A stretch of 54,136 nt of DNA, counting the filler, from Jimgerdemannia flammicorona (Eukaryota), in NCBI GenBank assembly GCA_003990765.1. It is 3 parts of 3 records of this genome, joined end to end, with 100 filler letters (N's around TTAATTAATTAA, not from the genome) between each part and the next. Parts side by side here need not be neighbours in the genome. Positions count along the whole stretch, not along the records: positions 1 to 17,982 come from RBNJ01002341.1; 2 more parts are not named here. One strand, given 5' to 3'. The notes beneath the pieces are model-generated. The model searched no databases. It worked only from the letters and a program-made list of their open reading frames with translations, and had not been told where the DNA came from. Made by a program: the position numbers and the translations under genes. Shown here piece after piece: positions 1,725 through 24,000 of the stretch; position 1 is the first letter of the stretch, and every line of letters starts with the position of its first letter.

Positions 1725-1825
1725 AGCTAGTGCTACATAAGAGGCGCCCGGCCCAACCCCCCCATATAAGACTGTCCAACCTGCACAAAATAGCTGCCTA
1801 ACCCTCATGAAAGATTGCCTAACTC

Positions 1826-3851
1826 TCACAAAAACTGCTCCACCTGCCAGTCCCAGGCCTTGATGAGCCTGTCATCCGTTGTGAGTGCGACGACTGTTGT
1901 GTCCAAGCTCTCCTCGAAGGCGACGGTGCCGTGGTGGTCATGTGGTTAGAATAGGATGGCCATGTTGGCCGCAAACGGGACCCCGAAACCATAGGTGAGG
2001 TCGTACCAGACTCCGCCGCTGTCCTCCCAGGTTGGGCCCTTCCTTTCCGAGACGTAAAACATTACCGGAGTGACATTGTTGTCTGTGTGTATGGGTAGAG
2101 AAAGGTTGCGCCCGACATATCCTGATGTGATGTGAGCGTACGGTTGGGTGAACCCTTGGCCCAGGACCTCATACTGCCAGGCTGTGCTGGTGGATGCCTG
2201 CCCTTGGTCCAGCCCCGGGAGCCCCGGCTTGGAAACCTGCCAAAACGGACGGCAACCGGTCAGTCCTTTTTGTGTTCAGGGGGCAGAAACCCCCCGGGCC
2301 GCAGAAACCCCCTGGGCTGCAGCACCCCAAAAAAGCAGAGCTCCTCACCTCATACAGCATGCTAAATTGCGCCAAGAATGTACGTACAGCCGCGCCGAGA
2401 TCACCACCAAGCTGGCCTGCCGTACGCTCTACCAATCTGCTCAAAGAACCCCAGATCATAGCCACCATCGCCGCACAGGCCGTGTCATGCTTGCGCGCAG
2501 TTTGCTCTTCGATGGCACTTCTAAAGTTCCGGTAGGGGTACAGAATCTTGTGTATCCCTGGAATTGTATCAAAAAGAGTATGTCGGCGAAGAGTGTGATT
2601 TATCTGGGGAGGGGTTAAAAAAAAAGGGAGACAAGTGTGGGGGATTTCGGAACCCACCCTTCACCAGTGTTGCAGTATACCCAATTCCCGTCCAAACCCC
2701 CCCTCCTTGCTTTTTTCGCCCCCTCTTCCCTGCCACCCAGTATTTGACACAATCCTCGCAAATCTCGTTGATGTGGCAGTGAAGCTCGTCGCCGTAGAGG
2801 TTCCTTACCACCATCGCAACCATAGATATGGTTCTCTTCATCGTTGGTTACTCCTGCTGGCCAATGGACCCCTTGGTCAAGTATGATTGGCTCTGATTCG
2901 AATGTAGACCCCCAAGCCTTGATGATGATGTTGGTACTGCTCATGCTGAACATCTTGCCCTCGAATTTCTCTATTTGATCAGATGCTGGACATGGTTGAA
3001 CTCGGGTAACTTTGAACTCTCCTTTCCACTGGAACTGAGCCCTGATCTGGGGGACCAAGATAAGTATGCGGATGGGTTGCATATGGGCGGGTTGTGGGCG
3101 GGTTGCGTGTAGGCGGGTTGCGTGCGGGCGGGTGGGTTACATGCGGATGGGTTGCATGCGGGTTGCGTGCGGGTGTGGGTGTTTTTTAGGGGGAGACCAT
3201 GTAAAAATGAAATTAAATAAAACACAGAGATGGGTATTTCAGAAAAAGAGCACGAGTGAGTGAGCTGCATGCCGATGAGTTGCATGCCGACGAGTTGCAC
3301 GCCGACAAGTTGCACGAGTTGCACAAGAATTGCTCACGAAGGCTTGCTTCTGTTCCTTTTGAGACCTCCACCACGCGATGCATTGACTCAACAGCTCAGC
3401 TACCAAAGGCATGCCCCACAATGTCCGCCAGCCTTTCTTCATCTTGACCAGATATTGCGAATAAAGTTGGCAGATCTCGCCATAGAGCTGTGGACCCTGA
3501 GAAAAGCACGAGGTGAATTGGATCATGCTGGGGAAGTTTAAATAAATAAACACAAGTAAACAAGTGGTGGCCGAGTGAGCAACCTACATCTACTATTGGC
3601 TGCTCCAAAAAGGCTGCTGCGTACATAGCTATGAGGTCTGTGAATTCTGAGGTCCGAAGGGCCGCCATGAGTTGTTGTCGGAATTCTCTCTCATCCCCGC
3701 TATCACCATTGCCATCGCCACTGCCACCGCCACCGCCATCACCCCTTTGGCTCTCGATGAGCAGCTTGTGTGCTGTCCATATGAGAAAGAATCTAACATT
3801 GTCAGCAGAGAGTGCGTTTCCACCTTGAATACTCCCTCTTTTGACGATCAT
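1826..3851 (-). pseudogene. TET/JBP-like 2OG-Fe(II) dioxygenase pseudogene (multi-exon)
   Basis: The minus-strand frame reads GRNLSLPIHTDNNVTPVMFYVSERKGPTWEDSGGVWYDLTYGFGVPFAANMAILF*PHDHHGTVAF. HxD lies at 2089-2081, the distal His at 1933-1931, and one TAA at 1948-1946. Upstream exons include KRGRKKQGGGVWTGIGY. The 5' limit is uncertain. Confidence 0.6.
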
Positions 3852-4054
3852 TGCAGGGTGAAAAATGAGTAGACTGGACCAACGTACGAAATTTAGGGCT
3901 GCTGTTTTGTTTACTCGTGATGTGGCAGGAAAGAATAAAGAAAAAGAACAAAGAAAAGAAGGGAACAAAGGAAAGGGTGATGTCACCAAAGTGTGGCAGA
4001 AAAAAAAAACAAGAGCGAAATGAACAAAAGAAAGGGTGATGTCACCAAAGATTT

Positions 4055-4235
4055 CAATCCGAATGGATCAATCCGGATGGGTCAATCCGGATGGGTCAAT
4101 CCAGATGGGTCAATCCGGATGAATCTGGATCAATCTGGATCAGATCACGAGACCAATCCGAGTTGATTCGAATCTATCACATGACGAATCTGAATAGAAT
4201 CTCATTTGGATCAACTCCATTCGTTCAGAGCACTA
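4055..4235. repeat. Subterminal repeats plus hAT-type terminal repeat
   Basis: Tandem ATGGGTCAATCCGG-like units ending ..CAGAGCACTA. Its reverse complement TAGTGCTCTG matches the consensus TIR start of the hAT element at 25125-31821. Confidence 0.55.
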
Positions 4236-4239
4236 TATA

Positions 4240-4406
4240 TAACAAAGTTCTAATTTATAATTTGATATTACTTAATTATTTAATAACTCTTTTATAGTCT
4301 ATACTGTTTTTATTAGCTCTCTTATAGATTATATAATATTTTATTGAGATTTTTTTTTTAAAAAAATTATAGTTATTATACTAATTAAATCTACTAGTTT
4401 TTATAA

Positions 4407-4439
<33 letters not shown>

Positions 4440-5339
4440 TAAAAAAAGCTTTAAATATTATATATAATATAATATTATTTCTATATAAGTAACTTATTTT
4501 TAGATTATAATATATTTTAATTATAATATACTTTTTATTAAATATATTATTTTATTTTATTATTTTTTTTAAAGTAAAGTTTTCTTACTTTATTTACTAT
4601 ATATATATCTTATTCTTTTTTATTAATATATTATAAAATTTTTATAAATATATTTAATAAGTCTTTATAGCAAATCTTCAAATTATATTTTTGTTATAAT
4701 AAAAGAAATAGTTAATAAGATAGAGTTAATAATAGTTATAATAAATAGTAAAATATTATCTTTAGATTTATATATTAGTATTACTACTATCTCTTTATTT
4801 TTTCTTTTTATCTAAATTAAATAATATTTATAAGACTTTAATAGAATTTTTTATAGTGAGAATTATTTAAGCAATAAAGATAGAGATGGCTATTTAGATA
4901 ATAGATAGTAGAAATAAAGATAGCTATAGCTGAGATCATAAAAGTAGAGATAACTTTCCTATACTTATTAGATAGAATTACTTCTCTCCCTTCTCTCCTT
5001 ATATCTTTTGATCTTTTTTATTCTAATAGTGAAAAAGAGATAAATAGTTCATTATTACTAATAGTAATAACATTTACTTCAGCTTTAGGTAGAGATTTCT
5101 AATTTAGACTGAGAAAGTATTAGTATAGTAGATTTGTAAAACTGAAAAGAAATAACTTTAAAAGAGCTAGTATTAGTATTAGAGAAGTTCACTTATATTT
5201 CACACAGTGGTTGAGTTATAAACATTACTGTATATATGTCACTATATAAATGTCACTGTTCAAAAGAGAGAGAAATTATGAACTCACTAAAATCCTATCC
5301 CCTAACCTGCACCCATTTTTGGAACCCCTCAACTGTGTA
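4240..5339. other. Extremely AT-rich decayed repeat relic, possibly a DNA transposon
   Basis: Abrupt AT-rich, CpG-free block. It ends in ..CCCATTTTTGGAACCCCTCAACTGTGTA, which resembles a TA-flanked Tc1/mariner end. No readable ORF. Confidence 0.3.
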
Positions 5340-5735
5340 CTCAAAGTTTGAAAATGGAAAAAAGCTGTGATGCCAGCTTCGTCTGATACCTGTCCAAAAA
5401 TAACATCTCGTCTCAACTTTGAGTACGACTAATGACCTGTGCCCACACGTTTGCGAATCGGACTGATTTTGTGGTCGTCCAGTAACTCAGAGATACTGAA
5501 CTTATATTCACAAAATTAACCATACCCATACTTTTATTCGCAATGCTATGCTTCGCAATTATGCAATCATATTCCCATCACACTTCCCTATCCACTTTCC
5601 CACTAACTAACCACATGGTCACGTCGCAAGAGGTACCGAGATGCTCGATGCTAAACATAATCAATCCCGTTCCTCTACCTCGCTATCCACGCTACCGGGC
5701 CGCTACTAAGCAACGCCCGTTGTTGGGCTGCCGAC

Positions 5736-6968
5736 TCAGTCGTAGAAGTCAATGTGAGTTCCCGAGCTGAACCCGGCTTCGGTGAGGAGGAGGAGGTTGA
5801 CCAACTTCGTCGCCGAGTCCTCCATCCGAACGAGCTTGCTCTGCGATGGCGATATTGGGTAAGGGGACCAATGAAATTGATGACCAACCGAGCGACAGGA
5901 GAACTTCGAATTGAGACACCGAAAACGTAGTGTCGATCCCATATCCAAAATAAGCTCACACGTCGACCAGTTAAACCCACCTCTGTATGCATCTTGGTGT
6001 ACAATTCTTTCTGCTCCATGTCCCCCAGAGTGTTGCGCACGTCGCGCTGCATTTCATTATCCAGTGGACCGGGCGCGTACGAGAGAGTTTTGACGTCGTT
6101 GGAAGCCTATTGCATGAAGATAACGGATTAAAATGGAGGATGACGGATATGGTCTGACATTTGAGTTTATGGACCTCCCTTCCCCAGAAAATTGTACCTC
6201 TTCCAGAGCTATAACCTTCAATAGCTGGTCCCTGGCCGCCTTCGCCGTGGAATACAGCCCCCAGTACGGGAACGCCTGAATTGCCAGCAGAGAGGAGATA
6301 TTGACGATGACGAGGCTAGGCGAGAACGGGTGCACATCATCAGCGGATCGGGTTCTGGGACGGAAGTAGGAGAGGAAGGAGGAGCTGACGAATAGAAAAT
6401 TTGGTCAGATAGGCAATAGGCCATAAAGCGTCACCCAACATAGGAAAATGATATGAAGTTGGTTTATTACCAGAGCGCGCTGAAAGACACAATGTTAATG
6501 TCCGTGTAATGTTTGATGTCGCGCCAGTTGTAGCGGGCGACAGTTTGTGAGAGGTTGCCGAGGGAGGCAGCGTTGTTGATAAGGATGGCTTTGGTGATTG
6601 GGGGGCCAGTTTCACGGACATCCTTTAATGACAAAGTGGAGTTTCAAATTAAGACGGCATTTTTGCCCGGAATTGGGCCACGAACTACCATTCAACCATA
6701 CCTCAATGGCCGTTTGAATCTTTCCCAACCACTCGTCTGTCCTCTCAATCTCATCGAACTGCACGTCGCCCACGACCACGACCTTGGTGGTCTCAGACTT
6801 GAGCTCGGCCTGAACGCGCTCGAGGGCCGTAGTGTCGCGGCCGATGAGGATGAGGGTGAGGCGGGAGGGCGGAGAGACGGCAGACGAGGTAGTAAAAGCG
6901 TGAGCGACGGCACGACCGAAGCCGCGATTCGCGCCGGTGATGGTAACGAGGATATGCGGGTGGAGCAT
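5736..6968 (-). CDS. Sepiapterin-reductase-like short-chain dehydrogenase/reductase (multi-exon)
   Basis: Motifs TGANRGFG, LINNAASLG, VNISSLLAIQAFPYWGLYSTAKAAR (YxxxK), YAPGPLDNEMQ and C-terminal FSSGTHIDFYD*. The exons join in frame through GT..AG introns. Confidence 0.88.
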
Positions 6969-7282
6969 GATGTTTTTGCAGAGAGTGGTGGTATCACCAC
7001 CAGAGGTTTTGGATTTTAGAGGACGTCTTCTCAAAACACTTGGCGGATAAGCCACATTGCCACATGACGACTGTGGGCCGAGCTCGCCATGCAATCGAGA
7101 AAGACAAATACCACCATGAACGAGATTTCTCAATTGGCGAGACAGCCACCAACCGAAAATTCCCCGATCGATATCGACGACAGCCAGGGTCTTGCAAAGT
7201 AAAATCGGAACCCACTAGGACATCCTATTTGGAAGAACGCCCACCGATCCATATAAGGGTGATGGCACTGGTCATTCTCCTC

Positions 7283-7292
7283 GTGACGTCAC
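7283..7292. promoter_or_regulatory. Palindromic ATF/CREB-type site in a divergent promoter
   Basis: GTGACGTCAC about 50 bp upstream of the LSM3 ATG, within the 376-bp gap between the head-to-head SDR and LSM3 genes. Confidence 0.3.
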
Positions 7293-7344
7293 CCACACGC
7301 AAAAACGCCACCCTCCAAACCCACCACTTCGCAACTCTCTCACC

Positions 7345-8036
7345 ATGTCTGACGTCGTCCCCGCCCCCACCACCGCCGTTCCCGCCCCCGCCCCGGAGAC
7401 CAATGCCGTCGAAGAGCCCCTGGACCTCGTCCGCCTCTCGCTCGACGAGCGCATCTACGTCAAGCTCAGGGGCGACCGCGAGCTGAGGGGGAAGCTGCAC
7501 GTACGTGTTTAGCAGCTTCGCGTGTTGTGCGAGAAATCGAGGGCGCTGACAAGTGTATCGATGTATGACGTTGTGGTGTATTTTGCATTAGGCTTACGAC
7601 GGTCACTTGAACATGGTGCTCGGCGACGTCGAGGAAACCATCACTGTGGTGGATATCAATGAGGAGACGTACGAAGAGGTCATTCGGGTATGTCGCGGTT
7701 TCACAATTTACTTTCTCTACTGTCTTTCCATATTCTAACATAATAGGGAGGGCAGTACCAATTTGAATATCTCTCATTGTCCTCACTTTTTTTTGTTATT
7801 GGTCCTGCAGACGGTGAAACGCAACTCGGAAATGCTCTTTGTGCGTGGTGACGGCGTGATTCTGGTACGTGTGGATATGGCATATACATTCTATGTAGTT
7901 GACCGAATGTCCATCGAGCCCATATTGACCTCGCGCATTGTGTCTATTTCGACCTCATACTCAATCTTGCTCCTTTTCTTTCTCTTCCCGCCATGTACAC
8001 GCTACATCGCAGGTCTCGCCACCGTCGCGGGCGTGA
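7345..8036 (+). CDS. LSM3: U6 snRNA-associated Sm-like protein LSm3 (4 exons)
   Basis: [47 protein letters not shown]..|[25 protein letters not shown]. Introns at 7501-7591, 7688-7810 and 7865-8012. Confidence 0.96.
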
Positions 8037-8406
8037 CGGGTACGGTGAGGGGTTGCGTATGTTTGGAACATTTATCCTATATCCATATTGTGTGATTGGA
8101 GTTGTTTTGCGATCGGAGTGAGTGCCTGACCAGTAGTCACTGTTTGATCATTTTGAGTACTGTATCGAGAACCAATATAGTGGATTTTGTTTTTAATAGA
8201 GAACCGAACATGAACTCAGCTTGTCCGTTTTCTTTATAATATGTAATATAGCACTGCCCCTTAAAAAAATACTGTCATTCGTTGCGTGTGACGTCTGTCT
8301 CGACGGCGTCACAATAGAGTGTCAACATCAAAGGCTTTTCAAACCCCGGGGTGTGGTATCAGATCCTACATGCCCACATCTCTAACCCCCCCCCTCCCCT
8401 CTGGGC

Positions 8407-10403
8407 TCACTTCCTCAACGCCTGCCCAAAGTTGACCCCCTCCTCGCTGAAGTCCTGCCGCCACAGGACTTCCTGGGCGTAATACAGTCCGGGCACGTGG
8501 CAGTTGTCTTTGCACGTGTAGATGAGCAATGTACCCCAGTCCAGCGAGTTCGAGACGGCGTGATCGATTTGGAGGTGGATAAGGAGGGTGGACAGGACCT
8601 GTGTAATCGTGTACCGTATTGGAGGAGGCTTTTGGTTAGACTCGTTCCGAGGGTGCGGGCGCGTCTTGGAGAGTGGGGCCGATTACCTGGAACTCGAATG
8701 TGCGCTCCCCCCCGCAGTGCTCGCACCGCGGGATGTCGTCTGGTTCCGGCTTGCCGTGGTCGCTGACCCAGAGTGGGTTGGGGTTTTCGAGCTCGTATTC
8801 TACGCGCGCGTAGCTATGGTTTAGTCGAGACGTGAACGAAGAGGAAAGAGCGTGGGCGATAGCATGAAAAGGGGAACCGAAGAAACACTTCATAAAAAAC
8901 CCGTCCGTTCCCAATCTCTAGCGATAAATAACAATGCCTTTGGATCGTATCGTACCGTAGAACCTGCTCGGGCTCCAGCTCAACTTTCTTCTGGAACTTG
9001 AGGAACGCGCTGTCGACGTTGACTTTCGTGTTTTCGTAGGTCTCGTCGCCGACAGGAACGAGGGCTCGGGATGGATCTGGATTACATGACGCATAGTAAG
9101 TGCAGATGAGGGGACAGATCACACTAACCGTATTAAAACATACATCAGCAGAGGAATAGCCAATAGACAAAACAGAAGAGATTGAAGAGTAATACCCTCT
9201 CCTCACATGCCCAAATCATCCCAACTATCCTTCGTACCTCCTCAAAAATAAAATGAAATCGTACCGAACCCAAGCTTCGCCACTCCCTCCGTCACTTGCT
9301 CGACCCCATCAACCCCACGCTCCTCCTTTATCGTCTCCTCAAAGTACCTCTGCTGCTCTTCTTCCTCCTCCGCCTCCTCGCCGGCCCCCTCGGGTTCCGA
9401 AACGATCTCTTTCTCCGGGAATACCCACCCCGCCTCCCTCAATGACCGCTGGTCCAACTCCACTAACTGCGCCGGTACGTCCCCACCCAAAGGGCACGTG
9501 CGTTTGTGTAAACCTTCTGTCCAGTGTGCCTGCTGGTGATCGCGCGAGCAGTAGTGCGCCAAGTGGCACTTGGAGCATGTCTTGGGTCCGTGCAGAGAGC
9601 AGACTGTACAGAGCGGTGGAGGAGTGAAGGGAGCCGGGACGAAAGGCGCGGGTGCAAGTTTCGACGTCGGGTTCGGGTTCGGCGTCGCCAGGGTTGGTGT
9701 TGTCGTATCGTCGTCGTCGTCGTCGTCGTCGTCGTCTTTGGATGTCGGCGGATAGTATGGGTTATGCTGGGGGAGTTGGCTGCGGTACACTTTGAAGCTG
9801 AGGTGCGGTGGGGCAAGGGGATCATCATCAGTTGTATTCTCATGAAGATTGTATGTCGCGGAAGTGAACAAGGCATGCACGGAGAATCCGCCTTTATACC
9901 TGCTCCTCCAAGACTGTTTATGACATGATCCTTTCCTGCAGCAGAACACGTAGACAGTGCGGTGGTATGACTCAATGGGATGGTCCTCTGGCGTGTAGAG
10001 CTTCAAGTAAGGCGCCAGATCAAAGCATATTGAGGAAGTTGTATAGACTTGAAATACTGCAAAAGAAGCGAGAGAGGCCTCCGGATCAGATCAGTTCCTC
10101 ACCTGTACCAGTAACTTCAATGGCTTCCCGCAGACTCCGCACTTGACCGCCTCCACATCCAGTATATGCTCCGGGTTTAGCCACGCCTATGTCCAGAAGC
10201 AAATCGAGAGGAATCAATATTCCACTCACAGCTCCCCCTCTTCTCTCCAACCAACCTCCGATCTCATTTCTTAAACGCACTGGCTTTCCGCCCAACTTGC
10301 TCGGAAACGTGTCGGCCGTCAGGGGCGTCACGGGGTCCTCGGCAAAGCCGAGTTGGACCACCGCGGCGCGGCCCGCGGGTACTTCGTCCTCGATGTCGGA
10401 CAT
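8407..10403 (-). CDS. PDCD2/TSR4-like protein with MYND zinc finger (multi-exon)
   Basis: VQLGF..FPSKLGGKP, YHRTVYVFCC, MYND finger CTVC..CSKC..YCSRDHQ..HW..HKRTC, and a PDCD2_C region IPRCEHCGGERTFEFQ..LDWGTLLIYTCKDNC..QDF. Confidence 0.9.
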
Positions 10404-11541
10404 GGTGGAAAAAAGAAAGAACCCTTGAAGGCACCAGAGGCGAAAAACAAAATTACCTTCTTGTGGCTTGTACCGCACGTGGTTTGACTGGTTTGGGTTC
10501 GAACAGAGATACTAGGCTTAAATCCACTTGCAAGCAAAAAAGGATAGATGAAACATCTCAACAATGAGCGTGGCAAACTTTAACCGTCTCTCAGAAGGCA
10601 AAAAAGCAATCAATATTACAAATATATCTTTTTCAAATAAATAAATAAATAAAATAAACATGAATCTATAAATATAGTTTTGATTTAAATAAAATGATTT
10701 GAATTGATAGGCTCCAATTCAATTCACCTCTCATGAGTGCTTCAAGGACCAGCTTCTTTTCCAAATTGCGGTTCACATGAGAAATAACGTGACTTAGCAA
10801 GACCCATTACATAATTATACACGTGGTTTTATCTTCGACCGCTACGCCTATCCGTTGTGGCACCCACAGAAATCTCGGCCGAGCCGTCAAATAACGAGAC
10901 ACTGAGCCGGATAACCCCGATATACAGCAGTAGTTGTAAGAGAATGCGAGCTGAAAGCTTATCCAAGTCAAAAATGATGGAAGAAAATTATATTACACAC
11001 AATAAAAAAAAGTTCACAAGGCACATGTCATATTCCACGCAATAAAAAGTTCAGAAGGCACATGCTATGTCAGGCTTTGTCTCTGGCGACCACTTATTCC
11101 AAATTCTTACATTCGCGTCGTCTTGTTCCTTGTCCCGCTGTCTTTGCAACGACCCACCATTAGTCGATCCTTTCCCTGAGAGAGAGACTAACGATCTGTA
11201 TCACACGTATCGTGGGTATAATTCTGTGTGACATCATCTCAGCCCATGGTTAACATTCCCCAACACCGTCGACATCAGAAAGAGAGACTGGGACAGCATC
11301 CCGGGTTTGCGGTCTAACCCCTTCACTAGTGGCCTTCGGGTTGCTCTGAAGAAAAATTTAGGCACGCCAACCCTGAGGCCGCACGGGGCGGGCAAATGCG
11401 TGCGGCGACAGGTTGTTGGGAACTTTGACGCTTTTTTGACATGAAAAAAAGGTAAAGCATCCTATTTTATTTCCCGACTATGTGCTACGCCTTTTTTTTT
11501 TTTTTTTCTGTCCACATACGCTGACATTTTTTGGCCGACGC

Positions 11542-11601
11542 GCCGGTCTTGGCTGCTCTTAAAGCCAACTGATGAGCCCCTTGAGCAAGGGCGAAACTGG
11601 T
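11542..11601 (+). ncRNA. Type III hammerhead ribozyme
   Basis: GUC cleavage triplet 11546-11548. Stem I TTGGCT/AGCCAA. Core CTGATGA 11569-11575. Stem II GCCC/GGGC. GAAA 11593-11596. Stem III GCCGGT/ACTGGT. Loop I GCTC is complementary to loop II GAGC. Confidence 0.88.
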
Positions 11602-11789
11602 CCATGTCGTCGAGATGCGGTGCCGGCTGCCTTGCTGAAGTACAGACCCTCAGTCGAGCTGCTAGGAGCATAATTACATGCAAATGTGTCATTCCGCACT
11701 TTCCAAAAAGTTAAAACTATACTAGAGATCCAGTATCAATGATATCTTAGTACCCCGCGAATCATAATTTCGGGCATGACCAACGACAA

Positions 11790-11889
<100 letters not shown>

Positions 11890-11949
11890 ATATTCATTTT
11901 ACATCTTATCGGACTTTCCGACCCGAATTCTTACACAATTTTTTACCTT

Positions 11950-12400
11950 AGCCACGGCAACATTCACATCACTCTCGCTCAAGGCCAGATAGACCTTGTC
12001 ACCAAGGTCGCGGTCATCAACAAGAAGGTTGTTCTCGTCCTGACCGAGGATCGTCCTCGTGTCATCCAGAACGCCGCCGATGTCTCCGGGCCGTGCTCCA
12101 GACCTTCCTCCCCGCCCGTGGGGTGGCCTCGCCATTGGCGTGGTGCTCTTGGTATCACCAACCCATCCGGTCGCCTTCGGCACACCTACCCTCGCTACCT
12201 CGGCAACCAAGGCCTCGTCTACTGGCGCCAGGTGAACGACAACAACTGGCAGTCCCTGTACGAGTTCGGCCACGGTTTGAGCTACTGGACGTTCGCCTAC
12301 TCCAACATCACCGTCTCATCCACGACTCTGACCCCCAAGCACCCTGTCAAGGCCTCCGTGCGTTCCCTGTCGATGCTCCTTTCACGCATCTGTGCGCCGT
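11950..12400 (+). pseudogene. GH3 beta-glucosidase C-terminal fragment
   Basis: QIDLVTKVAVINKKVVLVLTEDRPR, GITNPSGRLRHTYP and LYEFGHGLSYWTFAYSNITV are GH3_C motifs. There is no N-terminal catalytic domain, and the segment shows internal deletions and frameshifts. Confidence 0.8.
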
Positions 12401-13281
12401 AGCTAGGTTCGTCGTCAGACCAGTAGGGTAGTTGGTGCGACGCGCGGAAAGGTTGAAATTTTAATTTTCACAGTACTTCACGACTGACTTTTGCCAGGCC
12501 CTTTTCTTCAAAGTACTTCAAAACTAGCCTCTTTTCCTCATAGATCCCGGGACTATTTCTTTCGCAACTCATCGTCGCTTCGACCTGCCGTCGTCGCCAC
12601 CTAGGCCCTCTTAGGCTGAGCTATCGAGAAGTACGGGCATTGACAATACATGGACCTAACAAGGATTACCGGTGCCGATCACCCGTTACAATATGAATTC
12701 CAACGGCGACGACTGGATCTCCTTCACGGCCACGAATCTCCGGCCGCTACCTCCTGTGCTCGACAGATGACTGGAGCGGGCGCTTGATTTTGTTTGGCGT
12801 CCGGTCAGTGCGATCCCGACCGACGAGTTCAATATGTTGGCATCCGAGTGACAAGTACTTATTCGTTACGGAAGACGATTGGAAGGTGAATTTCGCACAG
12901 GAGAAGATGGTGGATAAGCTGGTGGGGCAAGGCCGTGGTCAGGAGACAGAGTGGAAAGCAAAGGACGACTGTGTCTATAATCCCCTCTATAAACAGATAC
13001 AGTACGCATAATTATATCGACCATACAATCTCTTCAATTGCCAGTCGCCTTCTCTAGGTTTTATTTCCAGAAGCCTGCCGCGATGCCCTATTTTTTTTTT
13101 TTTTTTTTTTTTTTTTTGATCATGAGATCGGATCTGCCACATTTCCGTGTACGTCATTATTAGCCAATGAAAAACTATAGTGGCACGGCGAAGGTCTAAA
13201 AAACCAGCAGGCCGTGGACGTTTTTTTTCCTCTGCCCTCGTCTTCATTTCGCGATAACACTTTACACTTTTAATAGAAAAG

Positions 13282-14003
13282 ATGTTCCTTCGTCCGAACC
13301 TTCTTCACTTCTCAATCCTCAAACGCCTGAGCTTCCCCCCTCGACCAGCACGCGCCTACACGACCACCCCACTCCGCCACGATGCTACTCCATATGTCCG
13401 TTACATAGCCATTGACAACCCGCGAAAGGGCAACGCCCTCTCCCTGTCCGTCCTCGAGTCGCTCGAGCACCAGCTGCTCGCGGTAAATCCGGGATGGAAG
13501 TACTTTGGTCGCGACTGGGAGGTTCCCTGGGAAGGAGATGATGCAGCCTTGGAGCGGTTCTGGAAACCGCTGAATCGTGAGGTCAAGGTGGTGATTTTGC
13601 GGAGCGAGGGCGAGGGTGTGTTTTCGTCGGGACACGATCTGAAGGAGATCAGGTGTGCAGATTAATTTGCGGCGTTCGAGATAGCTACAGGACGTGTCAT
13701 TTATAGTTGTTATCCTACCAGCACACTAGACTCAACCCTACATGCCAAGATATTCGATGCCTGCAATCGGGTGATGATATTGATCCGCGAACTACCTCAA
13801 CCGGTTATCGCACAGGTATACTGAAAGTACATGTTTCTTCGTAATTGTAATAGTATTTATGTTCAACTGCAAATTTCACATATTCTGGTTGCGTAGGTGC
13901 AAGGTATCGCGACGGCAGCGGGATGTCAGCTCGTAGCCACGTGTGACTTAGCGGTGGCGAGGTGAGGTCTTTCTTTTTGCGGTTTATTGTTCATGAAAGG
14001 CTG

Positions 14004-14039
<36 letters not shown>

Positions 14040-14656
14040 TCTTTCTGTGAATAATTGGTCGTGGCCCAGCGATAAGGCAACGTTTGCAACACCAGGTAGG
14101 CCGAAACATGCCAGATGTCTTAATTCACGAACACTACATTCTGTGATAATGCCTGCCATTAATTATAATCATCCATTACTTCGGTTTCATTAGGTGTCAA
14201 CATCGGTTCGTAAACCCACCATGTTTCACACAACCCAACCGACCTGCACTTCCCACTAACACAGTCCCTTAAACTCCCCCACCCATAGGCCTCTTCTGCA
14301 CCACACCCTCCGTTCCACTCTCCCTTAACCTCCCGTCCAAGTCCCTTCATCGCCTCCTCCTCACTGGCACACCGATCCCGGCCTCCGAAGCACTCTCTTT
14401 ACACCTCATCTCCCATGTGTCCCCGCACGACACCCTCGCCTCCGACACGCTGGCGCTGGCTGAGGGCATCGCGCGCGCGAGTGGCCGGGTGCTAGCGCTG
14501 GGCAAGTACGCGGTGAGGACGCATGCCGAGATGGTTGGGTTGAGGGAGAAGTACGAGTTCGGAGCGAAAGTCATGCGGTGGAACGTGAGGCTCGGGGACG
14601 CAAAGGAAGGGGTCGCGGCATTTTTGGGCAAGAGAGGGGCGGTGTTTAAGGATTAG
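13282..14656 (+). CDS. Enoyl-CoA hydratase/crotonase family, ECHDC3-like, probably mitochondrial (multi-exon)
   Basis: KGNALS, FSSGHDLKE, LPQPVIAQ|VQGIATAAGCQLVATCDLAVA, FATPG|VNIG|LFCTTP and DAKEGVAAFLGKR. The Arg-rich N-terminus looks like a presequence. Confidence 0.9.
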
Positions 14657-15068
14657 GGGGTCAAACTGGACTAGCGACGATGTTTGGCATTTTTCCTGTT
14701 GCAAACGCGAATTCAGCCCCATCATGCTATCATGGGTAGCTGCTGCAATCTAGATATACGATGCGCCATTCAACTCTTCGTCGACAGATTACTAAAGATC
14801 TCGATGGAAACATGATCGAATACATCTTTGCCGCCTTGATGGGCGACACTTGGCGCCATCACCGTAGGTGACAAATTGACAGATCTTGTCGCGTTTGAGT
14901 AACCAGCTTGACGGAGATGTTAGCTTGCAATATGTGAAAGCGTTCCAGGAGAAGCACAACTGTGTTTGGAGTAATAGTATAAAGTGCAGACATTCGCACT
15001 GCCTTCCAACCCTCAATTCACACTCTCCAATCCAAAGCAAGCAAACAACCCACATTCCAGCAAAAGCC

Positions 15069-15695
15069 ATGGCCAAGCAAATCCTCGCTCTTCTCTTCTT
15101 CGTCCCGGGCCTCCTCGTCACCCTCGGCGCCGCTATTCCCGTCCCCGAATCTACCAGCGTGCCCCAGGAACGCGACCTGGGCGAACGCTGCTTTGATAGT
15201 GCATGCGGCTGCGATGACCTTCCCTGCGGCGACTTCGACGTGTGCGATTTCCCCTGCAAAGGCTTTGGAGGAGCCTGCGGCTTTGGCTGCTATGGCTTCG
15301 GCGCGTATGGTTTCCCCTACAGAGGCTTCGGGGCCTGCGGCTATGGCTTTGGCTGCAATGGATGCAGCGGCCTCAACGCCCTTGCCAAACGCGACTTGAC
15401 TTCGATCCACGACAAGCGTGGTGCGTATGGCGCTTGGGGCGGTGGCTACGGCTACCCCTGCGGTGGCTACGGCTTTGGGTATCCCGGCCTCGCAGATTGC
15501 GGGACCTGCGGCCCCTACGTAGTCGACAGCAGCACGGCGTGCAACAAAGCCAACCAGGCCTGCGACCACGTAGCCTACGAAAACTGTAAGCATGTCGCGT
15601 GCAACGTGTGCAAGGATTGCGACCAGGCGTACTGCGCAAATAATGACCACTGCTGCGATGCCAGCAAGTGCGCCAATTTCAATGTCGTTAATTGA
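15069..15695 (+). CDS. Secreted Cys/Gly/Tyr-rich protein, 208 aa, unknown family
   Basis: Intronless ORF with a hydrophobic signal peptide (MAKQILALLFFVPGLLVTLGAA), 24 Cys, GYGFG-type repeats and two KR sites. TATAAAG at about 14978. Confidence 0.8.
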   Translation: MAKQILALLFFVPGLLVTLGAAIPVPESTSVPQERDLGERCFDSACGCDDLPCGDFDVCDFPCKGFGGACGFGCYGFGAYGFPYRGFGACGYGFGCNGCSGLNALAKRDLTSIHDKRGAYGAWGGGYGYPCGGYGFGYPGLADCGTCGPYVVDSSTACNKANQACDHVAYENCKHVACNVCKDCDQAYCANNDHCCDASKCANFNVVN

Positions 15696-16510
15696 GTGGG
15701 CGCGGTAAGTTGTGAAGAGGTGTAAATAGGAGCGCTTGCGAATGTGGCACGCAGGAACAGTTTGTACATATGACCTAATTGTATGCATATAGCCCGACTA
15801 CAACATAATAAATTGGGGGACAACCCACAAATGTAATCCTACGTCCGTCAATGATATTGGGATTGCGATTAGCACATTTTTCCACTACAATCGGTCGTGA
15901 CAATACCGTTCGTTATAGTCAATGCCACCACTCGATGCGAAGTATTGTTCATATTCTTCTTTTTTTTTTTTTTTTTTTTTTTTACACTATAATAGTACGA
16001 TTCCTACATTCTATTATATTGTCTGCCGCAGCAGTTTCACACAATGTCAAGATCAATATAATGCAGGTAGTTGTCCGACAACAATAGTGGAGGTTAGGGA
16101 GGCAGCAGAGGGATTCAAGATGACTTTGTAATCCGATGCCTTTTCAACTATTAAGGGAAGCGTGAAATCATAAAAGCACGTTGCTGTCCGTCCGCTGGTA
16201 GCGTGATGGGTTGGGTTGAGTATGAGATGAGATGGCAATATATTTTACCTCGTGGACACTTGGCATTAAATGGGTTATTTTTCAATGTGGCATTGGTTGC
16301 CAATAATCGTAGATTGCAGCAGTCGTTCAAAGGCAAATTCTATTGCCCTTTAACTCATTACTAAGTATATACACTGAGTTACTGCACGTAAACGTCACGT
16401 CGTTATAAGTCATATGTACGGATGTGTATGTGTAGGTAATGCGCCAATGACAGTGACAGTTCTCCTTCTACCCGGGAAATCGTAAAGCCATAAGTATATA
16501 TTCTATATAC

Positions 16511-16545
<35 letters not shown>

Positions 16546-17982
16546 GTACATTTCAGACAGCACATTGCTGCTCGGCCCTTCGTGGACACCCAAACGTGCC
16601 ATTAGATGCCGATATCAGACCTCGTATTTGAAGTCGTTGCTCTCCAAACTCACATTCGTTCTTGGTCACTCCTCGCTCAACCCCTCAGCTGATTCACATT
16701 CTGGGATTTGCCCCCCCCCAACACACACATCATGTATGCGAGTCGACTGCCCTAGCCAGATGCGCGATCCGTAACCCGGTTCACGATTTCACGCTATCGG
16801 GTTGCAAGAGTGTCTCGCAGCAGGCGGACCGATAAGCAACTTGCCCTCACCCCTACTCTTGCCTTCACCCTTTTACCCTCTTTGCCTCATTCGCCCCCCT
16901 CATTCGCCCGCGCTCGCTCATTCCCCCCCTCATTCGCACATGCCGGCTTCTTACATATACTGGAACGGCCAGGTATCCTAAAAACGTGAATATCCTAGTT
17001 GCGTGCATTCGCTCGCGGCGCATATAGTATGAGTGTATTTTATAAAAATAATAAAATAAAATAAAACATATAGAAAAAAAAAAACATTCATGGCCCGCTG
17101 ATTATTTAGAGCGCCCAGTCCCTTCGCCATGCCACTATCCAAGCTCAGCCTCTCGACCTTGCCCAGCCCTAAGCGCTATAATGCTTAAGGGAAGACGCCA
17201 GCTTATAACTACTAGTTTTGACCCCTCTGCCAGCGTTTATGGAATCAGCCACTGAAATGAAAAATTTTGTGCCGAGGTCACATTTCATTGGCTAATAGCG
17301 ATGACGTAAAGGAAATCTGGCGGACCCGAAATACCGTGGAGAAATCCGCGACAAAAGGTGCGAGAACAAATCGCCACAGCAATCGAGAACCTTGAGGTGA
17401 TATGCTTGAGCTATAATGCCATCGAATGATTGGGTGGATTGAAGAATGTGAGTATGATGTGGGTTAAACACGGTGGAGTATTTATGGCATGGCGAAGATT
17501 CATTTTTGATTTATTCTTTTTTATCGCCATCTCCAGGTAAATTTATAAACGATCGACATTGCAAACAACCATCTGGAGCACATTGAGTGCGTCGCACACC
17601 TCATGAAGCTGGAGGATGTTTTGTTGTTCCGCCCATTCATTGGGATAACCTCCTCTCTTCCTTCTAGGAGTTTGAGCAGCAGCTGACAAACGACAGCTCT
17701 CCATCGTTTACCTCGAGGGCAACCCCATGCAGCGCGACAACCAGCCCATTTACTGGACCAAAGTGAACTGGCCGTGCCGTATAGATTGCAGTAGTCGTTC
17801 AAAAGCAATACCTGATTCTGAATTTCTACGCGTAAACTCCACGACGCTATAAGCCATATGTACGAATGTACATGCGCCAATGAGTGACAGCTCTCGAATA
17901 AGTATTGTTTGAGAATGGTGTTGGGGATGACCTCTCTTCTACCAGGGTAAGCCATAAGTATATATTCTATGTACCAAAAAAA

Positions 17983-18082
17983 NNNNNNNNNNNNNNNNNN
18001 NNNNNNNNNNNNNNNNNNNNNNNNNNTTAATTAATTAANNNNNNNNNNNNNNNNNNNNNNNNNNNNNNNNNNNNNNNNNNNN
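17983..18082. other. Assembly gap / contig linker
   Basis: N-run containing TTAATTAATTAA, which gives stops in all six frames. Confidence 0.95.
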
Positions 18083-21000
18083 TTTTTTATAGTCCCTTGG
18101 ACTCCGTCTTTATTATCAGTCTATGAATAAGTATATAATATCACCACCCACTATCTGATCCTCATTGGGGGGCCCCTCCCCACCTCTTCATGTACAAAGA
18201 CCACTCTCTCACCAATAACTCCAACTCTCCCACCACTCTGACCACAGATTTTCACTACCAAGTGGTACCTCTGACCCCCCTGCAGCCCCCAACCAAGCCA
18301 CCAGCCTGTCAAGGTATCCTCTATAAGGCACTGCCAATATGATAACCAGCTCTCCAAGCTCTGTCGCCTCTCCTCCTCAAATACAAATAGCCAGTGACCA
18401 GCCAGCCCAACCCAAATAGCCAATGCCCAGCCTAGAGTAATCTACTCCTCTCCTACCCCTTCTATCAATCGATCCCTCAGGTCCTCCCACCTCCCCCATA
18501 CATCATCACCCCTATACCTTACCCCCAAGCAGTCCCCAATGGCCTGCCAAAAGTCTCCCAACACCTCACACTCCCCTAGCCAATGTTCTGGCATCTATAC
18601 AAATCCCCCTTCCTGCCCTACATTATGGCACTCCTTGCAGTCAAAGCAGCCCCCTACAACAAGGTGTCCTGAGTGGAAGTTAAGCATCACATTCCTCCTC
18701 AGCATGCGCCACCAGACCACCCAGTACTTTGGCAGTATCCAATTTTTCACTGCGGCACTCCAGATCTAAACCCCATGCCAGTCCTACTCCTCACCAATTC
18801 CAACTCCTTGCCAACCACTAGGCCACAGATCCTGGCCTGGTCCCCTTTGGCATTCGATGCCATCACTAATATTGAACTTAAGTAAAGGCATGCCTCCCAG
18901 AAGAATGCTATCCCATCTCTACATCACTGGGCCCCAAGCCCTCTCCCCCTCATCCCCTTACCAGCGAATACCAATGCAGTGTGCCCCCTCAGCTATCCCC
19001 ACCAGAAGCCTTTATATCTCAGTTGTGCAGTATTCTGAAGCCCAACGAATGAAAGAAGATCACCAGTCAAGCCTCTTGGTGATGTCTGCCTCTCCCATAC
19101 CTTCTGTAGCAGAGGAACCCAGCCCCCTCCACGCAACTCCACCACCCTCCTCAGCCACTATGCCCTCAAGCAGTGTAGTCTTTTGGGGAAGTCCACCAGC
19201 CCAAGACCACCTCTTGCCACTGGTAGGGACAAAGTCTCCCAACCAATCTGACTCTGTCTGCCAGCTCAAATCCATCTCTTGGCCACCTTCACCAATCTCT
19301 TCACTACCTAGGCTGGAAAGTCCAGATGATAAGCCAAATACCACAGCTTTGGCAGCCAGTATATATTCAAAATCGAGATCCTTTCTGCCAGAGAGAAGTG
19401 TCTACCCCCCCAACCCTGCAGGTCCTCCTCCCAAATTCCAATCCTCTGCTCCCACCACAGCCTGGACAAAACAGACCCATAGACTAACAAATAGATGCCC
19501 AGGTACTGCACTGCCTCTCCAGTGGGGACAATTGTTCCAATAACTTCTCCACCCACCAGGCTGTTGCCCAGCACTATTGTTTCACACTTGTGCCAATTCA
19601 GCTTCGCCCCAGAGTTCTCCTCATACTACTCCACTGTCTTCTTGAGCTCTTTGACATCTGCAGTCACTCTCAAACCAACCACCATATCATCTGCAAAGGC
19701 TCCAACCTTCCAGCCAACTCCATAGATAGAGAGCCCCACTATCCTCTGCTGAATCCTGTCCATTAGAGGTTCCAAGGAAAGAGCATACAAAATGGGGGAC
19801 AGTGGGTCCCCCTGGGGCACTCCCCTACCCAGAGGAAATGCTACCCCTCTATGCCCATTATACATGAGTGCAGCCCTACTCCTTTCCAGTAGGCTGACCA
19901 TCACCGACTGAAATGGGACTGGAACCCCAATTCTATCTAATACTTTCACCAGCCAGACTTACCGCACCTGGTCATAAGCCTTCTCCTGGTCCAAGAAGAC
20001 AAGACACCCATCTAGTCCACAGACTCGAGCACCTTCAATAACTCCATGTACCCAGGCCATGCCATCTCTAATAAGCTGACCCCCTATGAAGCCCCTCTGC
20101 TCAACACCCACAATTTGCTGGGCTATCTTCTATAGTCTTGCGACCACCACCTTAGTCACCAACTTTCTGTCCATATCTAGCAACATTATTGGCTGCCAGT
20201 TCTTCCAATCCTCTTGCCTTCCCTTGTTCTTATAAAGCAGCATCACCAGCCCAAGATCCTGCTCCCCCACCCATCTCCCCGACTGTAATATAGAGTCACA
20301 CAGTACTGTCAACTCCCCCAACATGCCCGGGACTCCAACCATTCACTTCCAGAAGTCCCAGGAGAGGCCATCCTCCCCAGGCGCCGTACCTGAGGCTGTC
20401 GCGGCAAGAACCTGGTAGATCTCATCCTTCTTTACAGGCATCATCAGGTCACCTAGTCCTTCAGCTTGTAGTGGGTGCCAATCTTCTAATATTTGGTCAA
20501 TGACCATGGCATCCACCCCACCCTCTTCCTCACTCCACAATCTACTCCATCGCACCTTCAGTGTACCAAGGATGTCCTGTACACTATGTACTAGTACACC
20601 ATCCAAGTCAAGTACCCCTTCCCACTGCTGCTGTACCCTTCTCGCTCGAAGTGTCCTCATGAGAAACTTGGAAGGTCTCTCCCCTTTCTCCAGCCCCTGC
20701 CAATGCAGCCATGCCACCAGGCCTTGCACCCTTGACTCTTCCTCTTCCCACAGCATCTGTTGTAGTTCCCCAACCTCTATCTTCACCCTCATTATTCTCC
20801 AATCCTTTTCTCCCTCCACTACTGCCAGTCTCGCCCACTCCTCCAGGAGCCTAACAAATCTAGTAGAAGCCCATCACACTTTCTGTCTTCGCTGCTTTCC
20901 AGCCACTCTGCCAGCCTCGCTCCAATACATCCTAGCTATCTCTTTCATTCTCATCCACCGAACCCCAATCACAGCCTCTTCCTGCCGCCAATTCACCACC

Positions 21001-24000
21001 TTCAGCTGAATGTCATTCGCCCACTCCTCCCACCAGGACTCATCATCCAACAAGGAGGAATTTAGGTGCCAATGTCCAGGCCCATCACTACTTTCCCCAA
21101 AACACCCCTGTCCCAAAAGGCCCCAGTAATCTGACCACGGACACCATTTTACCTCTAGTACCTTCCAAACATCATAGTCCCAACAGTCGGCTGTCAGAAT
21201 CTAGTCAATCCTTGTCCCCAGACCTCCAGCCTAATGTGTATATACCCTCCTATCCCCCCAGTACTCCCTACCAGCATCCATCAGTGCTCCTAGCCTTTTG
21301 ACCTCCTCCCACATTGCCAGCCCCCCACTCCTGCTCTCAGCACCCCATTCTCCATCAGTTCTATTCAGCCATACATCCCGAACCATATTGAAATCTCCTC
21401 CAAGCATATCCAACCCAGCTTCAGCAAGGATCCCACTCTCTAGAAGCCCTTTCACCCAATCCACATGCTCCCCCCACACAGTAGAGCAGTAACAGGAGCC
21501 AACTGTGACTGGCTCCCAACCTGCACGAATCCACTCACCCCAGACCAGTCTCTCCCCCCAGCTCCTCACATCCCTTATCTCCCCTCTGCCTTTCCGAACC
21601 AGAATTCCAACCTTGCTATTCCAAATCACCATACCACCCCATTCCTTAGTCCATTTCATCCTATCAGAGTCATCCTTGTACCTGACATCTTGCAAGAGGA
21701 AGAGATCGGCCTCCAATCCCTTCAACCAAATAAAAATGTTCTTGTGTCTAACTGTGCCCCTAAGCCCATTCACATTCAAAGAAAAAATGTTGGTTGTACT
21801 GTTCATAATGAAATATGGTTTATTCTCAATCAATCCCTACTGCTCTATACCCATCTCCTCCTGTGCCGTGTCCAGATTATGTTCAGCCATTACCTCCTCC
21901 TCTTCAGCCCTCTGAGCCTCTAGTCCAGCCAACAGCTCATTCATCTCCTCATCAGCCTTCTCCTCAAACTCCTCTCTGTACTCGATGCAAGCCTCCTGCC
22001 AAAGCTGCAATCCATGATGCCTGTTCCAATAGTACTCAGCCTTCTCCCCAGCAACAACTGCCAACTCTGCCTCCCTCTCCTTGTCCACCTCATACCCTTC
22101 CTCCTCCAGATATACTGCAAGAATTTCTGCCTTCAGCACCATCACTACTCCTTCCCTCTGCAAAATTCTCATCTAGTGCTCGTCGCCCATCCCATGCAAG
22201 TCCACCTCCCCCAGCTCTTCTGCCGCCAGGTTATTCATCATCCGGCACATCCAAAGTAGGTTCCCCACCTCCTTCCCACCAGGGGTCCCAGCCTCCCTCC
22301 ATCCAGCATTGTGGTGTCAGCTCCTGCACTTGCATCCTCATCCCACACCTCCAGGATATCCACCAGTTCCTCCTCCCTGGCCTCCACTACTTGGTCCCCA
22401 TCCATCACCTCTGGAATGCTGAATTTCACCTACTGGGTCCCCAGTATTGTCACATCCTCCCCCGACTTGTTCCTAGAAGCCGGGCCATGTCTGATAAGAG
22501 GAGAGGGGGTGGGGGAGTTCTCCCAGACTTCATCCTAGACCTCCAAGGTGCTGTCAGCATATGGGTTGCTAATCTTCACCTCTTTAGCCTTCCCTGTCTT
22601 TGCCCCATCGTTCCCACTCCTCTCACCAGCCCAGATACTTGCTCCGGCCCCTTCTGCACCCATCTTCATGCTCGCATCCTTCTGTGGTCTACCCCCCAGT
22701 TTAGCCAGCAGATCTTTCTGCCTCTTCCGCCCCTGAGCCCTTTCCCACTGCACCTTGTCCACTCGAATCCTCTTTCCATCCACCACCTCCAGGTGCATCG
22801 ACTCCTCGAAAGTCTTCCAGGCCTTAGCTCACCATTCCACAGCCCCATCCAGCTCCTCCAGTGCTTCCAATAAATCTTCCTCCTCTTCTTTACTTCCTTT
22901 CATCTGTGTCACCTTGCACAGAAATGCTCCCCAAACCATCACCAAAGGCCAGTCCCTCATCTTTCCAGTAGCCTCTTTCCCAGCCAGCTGAATCCTCACA
23001 TCTACGTCTCCAGTCCTGAGCGTGGTCCCTTCCCAGACCCTGAATCTGATATCCACCACCTCTCTGTACTCTGCCATGACATCCTCCACTCTCTTCCTCA
23101 TCTCCATCACCATCACTGTGGGTACTCCTTTCACCAGCAGTTGGACCACCCTTGGATTCCATTTCAAACACCTCGCCATCGGAACACACATCTCCCCAAC
23201 CATCAACCCAACCTTCAGTGCCTCCTCCAGTGGTTCAACCTCCTCAAAACCCACCTCTACCCCCTCTAGTCCCTTCAGAAACTTCACCAAGGCTGCTCCT
23301 GCCACCTGCTTAGCGATAAGCCCCAACACCATTTTTGCCGTCACCACTAAGCCCCGGAAGCACAGTGTGACTGCAAATGCCGAGATCGACTTCTTGAGTA
23401 ACGGAGCCACCGCCAGTCCCATTATACCATCTGCCAGGTCCCTGGGCCTTGTGCCCTTCCCACTGCTTGGCTCACTATCAGCAGTCCCATCTAGATTTTT
23501 TTCTAGATCACCTGTCACACCCCCATCAGCAGTCTCTGTCCCAGCCGCTACCCCCCCAGCTCCACCCCTATGGCCCTCCAGAGAGGTACCCCCAAGAGGT
23601 TGCTGCCTGGAAGCCTTCACCAGTACCTTCCTCCCTCTCAGCCAGCCCTCTAGTTCAGCTCCCTGCTGACCCCCCTTCACCTTCTCCACAAAGCTCACTC
23701 TGCCAGACCCTTGACCTCCAGCTCCACTCCCTCCTCCACCATGGTCTCCCACCAGTAGGCCCCTCATACTTCCCCCCAAGCCGAGGCCTCTCTCCACTTG
23801 CTGTCATTCAAATGCTCCAGGGCCACCCTGCCCAGTATGCACCTCCAGATGCTTGTTGGATGCCATGATACTAGTAGCTTTTCTCTAGAAACTGTGTCGA
23901 AAGTGTTGCCAAAAGATTGTGTAACCTGAATGTTATTGGAGAAAGATGCCTGCCCACTATTACTCTCTTCTCCATCACTCTCAGCAGTATATCCTCTATC

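Follow-up and report, generated by a model that had tools for sequence, protein, structure and literature searches.

A sequence-intact candidate type III hammerhead ribozyme in fungal DNA and its relatives in tandem repeat units

Is the motif at positions 11542-11601 (+) of a 54,136-base stretch of DNA from Jimgerdemannia flammicorona (hereafter the window) a genuine hammerhead ribozyme, and what kind of element could have left it there? The original prediction for this DNA described a complete type III hammerhead in fungal intergenic DNA, with a pseudoknot joining the loops of stems I and II. The window consists of three ~18 kb contigs joined by two spacers of the form N44-TTAATTAATTAA-N44 (17983-18082 and 36061-36160); the motif lies on the first contig (1-17982), and features within 18083-54136 have no linkage to it. 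We conclude, with a probability of roughly 0.9, that 11542-11601 is a genuine hammerhead whose sequence is intact, and we found that a closely related ribozyme module is carried elsewhere in head-to-tail repeat units, where it is arranged in a different topology.

All of the nucleotides of the hammerhead core were present at 11542-11601 (+), namely C3 U4 G5 A6 N7 G8 A9, G12 A13 A14, the A15.1-U16.1 pair, and a residue other than G at H17. Three helices surround this core in type III order, with stems III, I and II of 6, 6 and 4 bp, loops closing stems I and II, and stem III left open; G10.1-C11.1 opens stem II, and 16 of 16 stem pairs were standard when checked by script. Reading from the 5' end, the stem III strand GCCGGU (11542-11547, ending in U11547 as U16.1) pairs with ACUGGU (11596-11601) in 6 bp, of which two are G-U. 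C17 follows at 11548, completing a GUC triplet immediately 5' of stem I, and cleavage is predicted between C11548 and U11549 (11548-11549). The stem I hairpin (11549-11568) is formed by six Watson-Crick pairs between UUGGCU (11549-11554) and AGCCAA (11563-11568), enclosing the 8-nt loop I (GCUCUUAA, 11555-11562). Next come the core sequence CUGAUGA (C3-A9, 11569-11575), which falls within a match to the Rfam hammerhead family RF00008, and the stem II hairpin (11576-11592), in which GCCC (11576-11579) and GGGC (11589-11592) form 4 bp around the 9-nt loop II (CUUGAGCAA, 11580-11588). The remaining segment (11593-11601), identified by sequence, script and fold alike, comprises GAAA (G12-A15.1, 11593-11596) and the 3' strand of stem III, ACUGGU. 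Within the loops, GCUC (11555-11558) is complementary to GAGC (11583-11586), and the script confirmed four Watson-Crick pairs between them.

This architecture was also recovered by folding. In a nearest-neighbour model that leaves out both the pseudoknot and the core contacts, the hammerhead was the minimum-energy structure of the 60-mer 11542-11601 (-18.6 kcal/mol), and the minimum-energy fold of 11536-11612 retained all three hammerhead stems. The complete type III hammerhead of the original prediction was thus verified. The outer extension that had been suggested for stem III stood in part: CGACG (11536-11540) and CGUCG (11608-11612) are indeed complementary, but the minimum-energy fold of 11536-11612 placed the extension in a register shifted by 3 nt, with a pair probability of 0.42.

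A motif of this completeness is not expected by chance. If bases are modelled as independent, at the composition of the contig, the expected frequency of a type III motif whose stems reach 6/4/6 bp or more is 2.4e-13 per position and strand, which corresponds to 2.6e-8 per window, 0.006 per 250,000 windows and, under the same model, ~1e-4 in a 250-Mb genome. The pseudoknot is a different matter, since random 8-nt and 9-nt loops formed four Watson-Crick pairs in 9.4% of trials, so that the complementarity of the loops is by itself weak evidence. The RF00008 match (11546-11597, 30.5 bits) had an E-value of 6.4e-5 in a 251-nt search and 7.9e-4 in a 3101-nt search, and in the latter no other match appeared at E up to 1; the region 10100-13200 gave no minus-strand ribozyme match at E up to 1. 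The motif also appeared to be solitary, as had been claimed. The loose pattern CTGATGA-N(8-38)-GAAA occurred at two places in the window, against 1.62 expected, and the second of these (25853-25887, -) was not matched as a hammerhead even with the E cut-off raised to 10 in a search of equal size, while BLAST of 10800-11780 against the whole window returned homopolymer matches only.

Relatives were found by pattern scans. For the metagenome contigs the pattern had 26 fixed positions (the stem I 3' strand, the core and stem II) and left loop II free; exactly one contig, the 1294-bp L123, contained it, at two places spaced by 530 nt. A scan of the genomes of 185,579 prokaryote species yielded a single record, L124, with two occurrences spaced by 394 nt. 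The exact module CTGATGAGCCCCTTNAGCAAGGGCGAAAC was present at 0 loci in viral contigs, and BLAST against phages and plasmids gave no match. A ribozyme module of ~57 nt is therefore common to the window, L123 and L124, and in the last two it is repeated head to tail, an arrangement that the window lacks: L123 consists of 2.0 identical units of 530 nt, and L124 of 1.3 units of 394 nt with 1 mismatch in 129 overlapping bases. The two repeats share 62 nt around the ribozyme (90%), while their remaining sequence, which we call cargo, is unrelated; both have units of 60-63% G+C, and no Pfam family was found in the cargo in the four frames tested. L124 is a stand-alone contig of 523 bp in a bacterial assembly in which the element does not occur again; it may reflect contamination or a collapsed repeat, or may represent a small extrachromosomal element.

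The relationship between the window and L123 is that of a circular permutation. BLAST aligned 11561-11602 (42 nt at 95%) and 11543-11557 (15 nt at 93%) in permuted order, and loop II, although free in the scan pattern, was identical at 8 of 9 positions. In the relatives, the parts follow one another as stem I 3' strand, core, stem II, GAAAC, CGGUC with the cut site, stem I 5' strand, GCUG and cargo, so that stem I encloses 490 nt (L123) or 354 nt (L124) of unrelated sequence where the window has an 8-nt loop. Stem I in the relatives is thus open; if the cut site of one unit is combined with the core of the following unit, the stem is closed by cargo. As RNA, the L123 and L124 units were predicted to adopt branched minimum-energy folds in which stem I closes the cargo, with stabilities modestly above those of shuffled sequences (z -1.62 and -2.07, respectively). 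Their stem III is a loopless palindrome, ACCGGU, that can pair with a neighbouring copy or with another molecule but cannot close inside a single motif. The ribozyme of the window is the one form that is complete in cis, built of the same parts but with an 8-nt loop in place of cargo and with its own two stem III strands.

Two observations on L123 itself may be recorded here. A 156-aa frame matched its own contig and one ENA protein (P0047; 68% identity over 37% of the query), and P0047 includes the same ribozyme-encoded peptide as the L123 frame. Additionally, each 530-nt unit contains, at 468-644 and 998-1174 (-), two similar modules resembling the Alu domain of signal recognition particle (SRP) RNA, with a hairpin, UGUAAC and a second hairpin; the Rfam Plant_SRP match, at 22.1 bits with an E-value of 7e-4, was weak and stayed under the threshold of 105. 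If real, a 7SL-like cargo in a ribozyme-bearing repeat would be unusual.

The differences between the window and L123 preserved the structure. Five positions differed (11542, 11553, 11558, 11583 and 11598), and all five retained pairing. Three of these were changes within stems, namely G to A at 11542 (G-U in the window, A-U in L123), C to U at 11553 (C-G and U-G) and U to C at 11598 (U-G and C-G). The other two, C to G at 11558 and G to C at 11583, lie at facing positions of the pseudoknot and are compensatory, so that GCUC/GAGC in the window corresponds to GCUG/CAGC in both L123 and L124, and Watson-Crick pairing between loops I and II is maintained with covariation. L124 combined the pseudoknot of L123 with a double change that turns a U-A pair of stem I into C-G. 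When five random substitutions were placed over the 32 aligned positions outside the fixed pattern in 300,000 trials, the core, stems and pseudoknot were all kept in 1,993 (0.66%), a proportion below the real probability, which lies somewhat higher given the uniform model and the three wobble-friendly transitions; the core and stems, with no requirement for the pseudoknot, were kept in 15,163 (5.1%). These substitutions point to selection for a working ribozyme on the lineages that separate the copies. Furthermore, the compensatory change independently supports the predicted pseudoknot, beyond the 9.4% chance expectation from loop complementarity.

Several results weigh against our interpretation, either of the motif as a working ribozyme or of its derivation from a repeat. 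At gathering thresholds, a whole-window Rfam scan matched 0 of 4227 families, and the 30.5 bits of the RF00008 match compare with a gathering score of 48.5, so that a covariance-model hit was obtained by E-value but not by the curated score. This shortfall of 18 bits arises mainly because loop I is long and because only 2 bp of stem III lie inside the match. When the context was widened to 91 nt, the fold of lowest energy (-29.2 kcal/mol) kept stem I but exchanged stems II and III for other pairings, and this 91-nt stretch was no more stable than its shuffles (z -0.17); by this fold model, long transcripts might misfold. The outer end of stem I in L124 has one A-A mismatch, and the covariation comes from two relatives only, judged against a uniform model and including three wobble-tolerated transitions among five changes. 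The contig showed no repeat around the ribozyme, no reverse transcriptase and no target-site duplication, the sole test for the last being direct repeats of at least 8 nt beside an A tract downstream, and it holds one hammerhead copy in 18 kb. Degenerate neighbouring copies were considered and rejected, as neither flank resembled the 54-nt unit (with 1000 shuffles for each flank, 603 scored as well upstream and 616 downstream). The same held for homology of the flanks to the L123 unit, where 62 of 200 shuffles were as good for one flank and 190 of 200 for the other; because the flanks are unlike L123, a mobile-element origin rests on the relatives, L123 and L124.

We also compared the motif with hammerheads of viral contigs. 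A type III comparison set of 29 distinct candidates was drawn from 122 viral-contig loci with a GCCC/GGGC stem II, and stem I was 6 bp long in 18 of the 29. At least three Watson-Crick pairs between the loops were possible in 16 candidates (shuffled loops: mean 8.0, maximum 15), and at least four in six of them (shuffled: mean 1.4, maximum 6). The sharing of this 6/4-bp pseudoknotted design by the viral set indicates that it is common in nature, and it keeps an origin of the module in bacteria or phages among the rival explanations. In the window it is the first 4 nt of loop I that take part in the pseudoknot, whereas a by-eye reading of the phage examples L007, L028 and L093 shows the last 3 nt in that role. 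Eleven viral-contig loci (L126-L136) carried type I hammerheads with the same AGCCAA/UUGG stem I, a resemblance that is partly built in because the scan pattern fixed the stem I sequence. These loci resemble the window in having an identical stem I 3' strand and core, and L128 resembles L124 in having AGCA in loop II and a GCU tail past stem I; they differ from the window in their real stem III hairpin, their other stem II sequences, their open stem I and their location on viral contigs of 4.8-56.5 kb. A separate viral contig, L018, contained four type I hammerheads within 1.5 kb (301-1818, +). In each of these, loop II has the form CUGGCAAG and a complementary UGCCA follows immediately after stem I; this clustering with pseudoknots is an arrangement known from prophages.

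Among described ribozymes, the window resembles the type III pseudoknotted hammerheads (RF00008, clan CL00010; PMC3088659) in its full core, closed stems I and II and open stem III, and, as that paper presents them, in a stem I that is 2 bp longer than stem II and in Watson-Crick pairing between the loops. Such pseudoknots are given there for ~40% of hammerheads (Perreault et al. 2011, PMC3088659). Unlike the members of RF00008, the window scores 18 bits under the threshold and has a mucoromycote fungus as its host. The genomic hammerheads of Yarrowia lipolytica, which the same paper ties to interspersed repeats (Perreault et al. 2011, PMC3088659), are also DNA-encoded and fungal; they belong to a different phylum, and the comparison here is at the level of that description. 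An engineered ribozyme cassette of the guide-RNA type used in fungi was dropped as an explanation, since the standard cassette has another design and the flanks are ordinary genomic DNA.

A further hint of the original prediction, that the topology recalls viroids and plant retrozymes, held for the type III order itself, but the closest relatives proved to be tandem units with stem I open and stem III almost absent, and phage hammerheads have the same stem I. Plant LTR retrozymes (Cervera et al. 2016, PMC4918200; PMC7761336) are, as described in these sources, type III and occur as genomic monomers as well as dimers, in which they are like the window. The window has one hammerhead only, however, with neither the ~350-bp direct repeats nor the second ribozyme 600-1000 bp away that characterize those elements. 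A 4-bp target-site duplication, a primer-binding site for tRNA-Met and a polypurine tract are further hallmarks of plant LTR retrozymes; at this locus the search for such a duplication covered direct repeats of at least 8 nt beside the A tract, and it gave none. In plant retrozymes the ribozyme is described as conserved and the cargo as not (PMC7761336), which resembles the relation between L123 and L124. L123 and L124 are also like the non-LTR retrozymes and hammerhead satellites (Cervera and de la Pena 2020, PMC7229834; PMC7761336) in having head-to-tail units with one ribozyme each and an open stem I, and like the dimer-dependent hammerheads of animals (PMC7761336) in having a helix III too weak within one copy, to the extent that these sources describe them; in contrast to non-LTR retrozymes, the window has just one copy, which lacks cargo and possesses a proper stem III. 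Animal retrozymes are given as ~150-300 bp and under 50% G+C in a review (PMC7761336), unlike the 394-530 nt and 60-63% G+C of the L123 and L124 units. The ribozyme of the window is a type III hammerhead with full stems and not the minimal type I motif that sits in the pseudo-LTR of Penelope-like elements, and no reverse transcriptase or GIY-YIG domain was found by Pfam in the 37 reading frames of at least 120 aa on the contig. The reported absence of an LTR or a Penelope reverse transcriptase thus holds, but its scope is just 18 kb of contiguous DNA, the window being three joined contigs. Nor does the locus resemble viroid-like or ambivirus-like agents with ribozymes in both polarities within units of some hundreds to thousands of nt, as the minus strand within 10100-13200 gave no match with E up to 1.

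The surroundings of the ribozyme identify its host. A PDCD2-like gene with a MYND finger lies at 8369-10403 (-), as located by tblastn of its 426-aa product (P0003; Pfam zf-MYND and PDCD2_C) onto the contig. This product was 98% identical to a protein named Jimgerdemannia flammicorona by its source, and its next matches were Endogone and Mucorales proteins with at most 53% identity. Because of this neighbour the ribozyme host is a fungus, and by sequence the contig is from Jimgerdemannia flammicorona or a close relative, in the Endogonales (Mucoromycota). The start codon of the PDCD2-like gene is 1.1 kb from the ribozyme, on the opposite strand, and the ribozyme is housed in a 1.5-kb gene-free interval beside the PDCD2-like promoter region. 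Coding sequence over the ribozyme was rejected, since 16 reading frames tested around it matched 0 Pfam families and an 89-residue frame across the site matched no protein; protein-level searches with the ribozyme-crossing frames returned no copy from a fungus. The intergenic placement that had been proposed in fungal DNA is therefore upheld.

Long homopolymer runs flank the motif on the plus strand. A T16 run (11492-11507) lies 35 nt upstream, and an A38-C-A58 tract (11791-11887) lies 190 nt downstream. The contig is unusually rich in such runs, with seven A/T runs of 15-58 nt in 1-17982 (starting at 11492, 11791, 11830, 13091, 14008, 15960 and 16512), so that the T16 run, being one of seven that reach 15 nt or more, has no specific tie to the ribozyme, and the A tract is no evidence of retroposition because long A/T runs are frequent in the contig. 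A retroposed copy ending in the A tract was rejected, as no flanking direct repeat of at least 8 nt links the 3' flank to the DNA upstream of the ribozyme. An open frame at 11743-12399 (+) encodes poly-lysine from the ~100-nt A tract and then a fragment of a GH3 C-terminal domain (Pfam E 5.4e-8), and looks like a truncated pseudogene. We found no transfer RNA (tRNA) genes in the contig and, within 10100-13200 on both strands, no Rfam match with E up to 1 other than the hammerhead, and on these grounds a short interspersed (SINE-like) element driven by a nearby RNA gene was rejected.

Other features of the window were noted in passing. Seven degenerate, GGC/GCT-rich copies of a direct repeat (32-nt reference, offsets of 15-84 nt) occupy 15271-15494, inside long open reading frames that overlap on both strands (14880-15797) and have no Pfam match. 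Beyond the first spacer, composition is strongly strand-asymmetric at 18083-24000 (C 37%, G 15%) and at 32000-36060 (G 34%, C 13%), with an AT-rich stretch (26-36% G+C) between the two blocks and no inverted repeat connecting them at the level of megablast. An open reading frame at 21234-21836 (-) gave a weak Exo_endo_phos match, as the endonuclease of a long interspersed element (LINE) might give.

By analogy with known hammerheads, a plus-strand transcript of this locus would fold in order during its synthesis, with stem I forming before the core and stem II, and stem III last. The 4-bp pseudoknot between loops I and II would dock stems I and II, and the RNA would then cut itself between C11548 and U11549, so that the upstream product ends in a 2',3'-cyclic phosphate and the downstream product begins with a 5'-OH. 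We consider it probable that cleavage at C11548 would occur in vitro. As to origin, we lean slightly towards a solitary, compact derivative of a repeat-borne ribozyme module, or an ancestral-type form of it, over a device of the host. The module occurs elsewhere in tandem units of 394-530 nt, and the fungal copy could be a stranded, cargo-less derivative of a repeat-borne or mobile element; alternatively, within the same explanation, it could represent the ancestral form of the module. A device in fungal use is less likely. A more specific version, which we put forward tentatively and regard as unlikely in its full detail, is that the locus is the footprint of an undescribed, retrozyme-like repeat lineage in early-diverging fungi or in organisms closely associated with them. 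Such a lineage would combine a ~60-nt module with interchangeable stem I cargo of 350-490 nt, one of them SRP-Alu-like, and its tandem-array transcripts would be processed to unit-length, possibly circular RNAs; the window would be its minimal, cargo-less form and the sole one able to cut as a monomer.

One rival explanation would accept the intact motif while denying it activity in the cell. The ribozyme could be a silent fossil, with no plus-strand transcription, or with an RNA that misfolds in context, and hence no cellular cleavage, and the alternative fold that is 6.5 kcal/mol more stable in the longer context, together with the T16 and T6 runs just upstream, is consistent with this. Decay would nevertheless be expected to bring damaging changes, and five of five differences from L123 preserve structure, although such differences imply selection on the lineage and not at the fungal locus itself; on balance we judge a silent fossil somewhat unlikely. 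That the motif is merely a chance match to the hammerhead consensus could be argued from the Rfam score under the gathering threshold and from the single copy, but with 0.006 such motifs expected per 250,000 windows, and with homologues that carry compensatory changes, this is effectively excluded.

Two more rivals concern where the module came from and what it is for. Horizontal transfer of a bacterial or phage module, into the fungal genome or into the tandem-unit lineage, would accommodate the type I hammerheads with an AGCCAA/UUGG stem I at L126-L136, some of which have a GUC-UUGGUAGCU-like tail as in L124, as well as the bacterial assembly from which L124 comes, the 60-63% G+C of both relatives, and the dominance of the 6/4-bp pseudoknot design in the phage type III set. 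However, no copy of the exact module CTGATGAGCCCCTTNAGCAAGGGCGAAAC occurs in the viral contigs, and the scan pattern that recovered L126-L136 fixed stem I, so that their likeness is partly built in. Moreover, L124 is one contig among the genomes of 185,579 prokaryote species, a stray 523 bp that could be a contaminant, the phage and plasmid BLAST was empty, and no bacterial gene flanks the fungal copy, all of which makes such a transfer quite improbable. The host might instead have taken over the ribozyme to cut plus-strand transcripts that come from upstream of the divergent PDCD2-like promoter or run downstream, and it could thereby insulate or terminate transcripts or define the 5' end of a non-coding RNA. 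An intact, self-contained motif with a real stem III in cis, unlike its relatives, and its single-copy presence on the contig in the 1.5-kb gene-free interval beside a promoter region would suit this role; but no plus-strand gene carries the ribozyme in an untranslated region or intron, and the nearest plus-strand coding remnant is the truncated GH3 fragment past the ~100-A tract, and we regard host takeover as very unlikely. The reading that we prefer remains a stranded or ancestral-type member of a repeat-borne module.

Hammerheads occur in every domain of life, and genomic examples from fungi (Yarrowia) have been in print since 2011 (PMC3088659), so that a further genomic hammerhead is in itself unsurprising. 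In the literature that we searched by titles and abstracts, no DNA-encoded hammerhead was described in the Mucoromycota, and no word beginning with 'fung' occurs in the main text of the retrozyme review PMC7761336. What the present locus adds is one module in two topologies, self-closed in 54 nt in the window and enclosing 354-490 nt in its relatives. It offers a clean natural example of interconversion between type I, type III and dimer-dependent hammerheads through gain or loss of cargo, and the compensatory change provides a ready-made mutant pair for the pseudoknot. If it is true that related tandem units live in Endogonales genomes, then retrozyme-like elements would extend to fungi. The finding is valuable mainly because it may lead to retrozyme-like elements in early-diverging fungi, and because it supplies two natural topologies of one module, with covariation in the pseudoknot.

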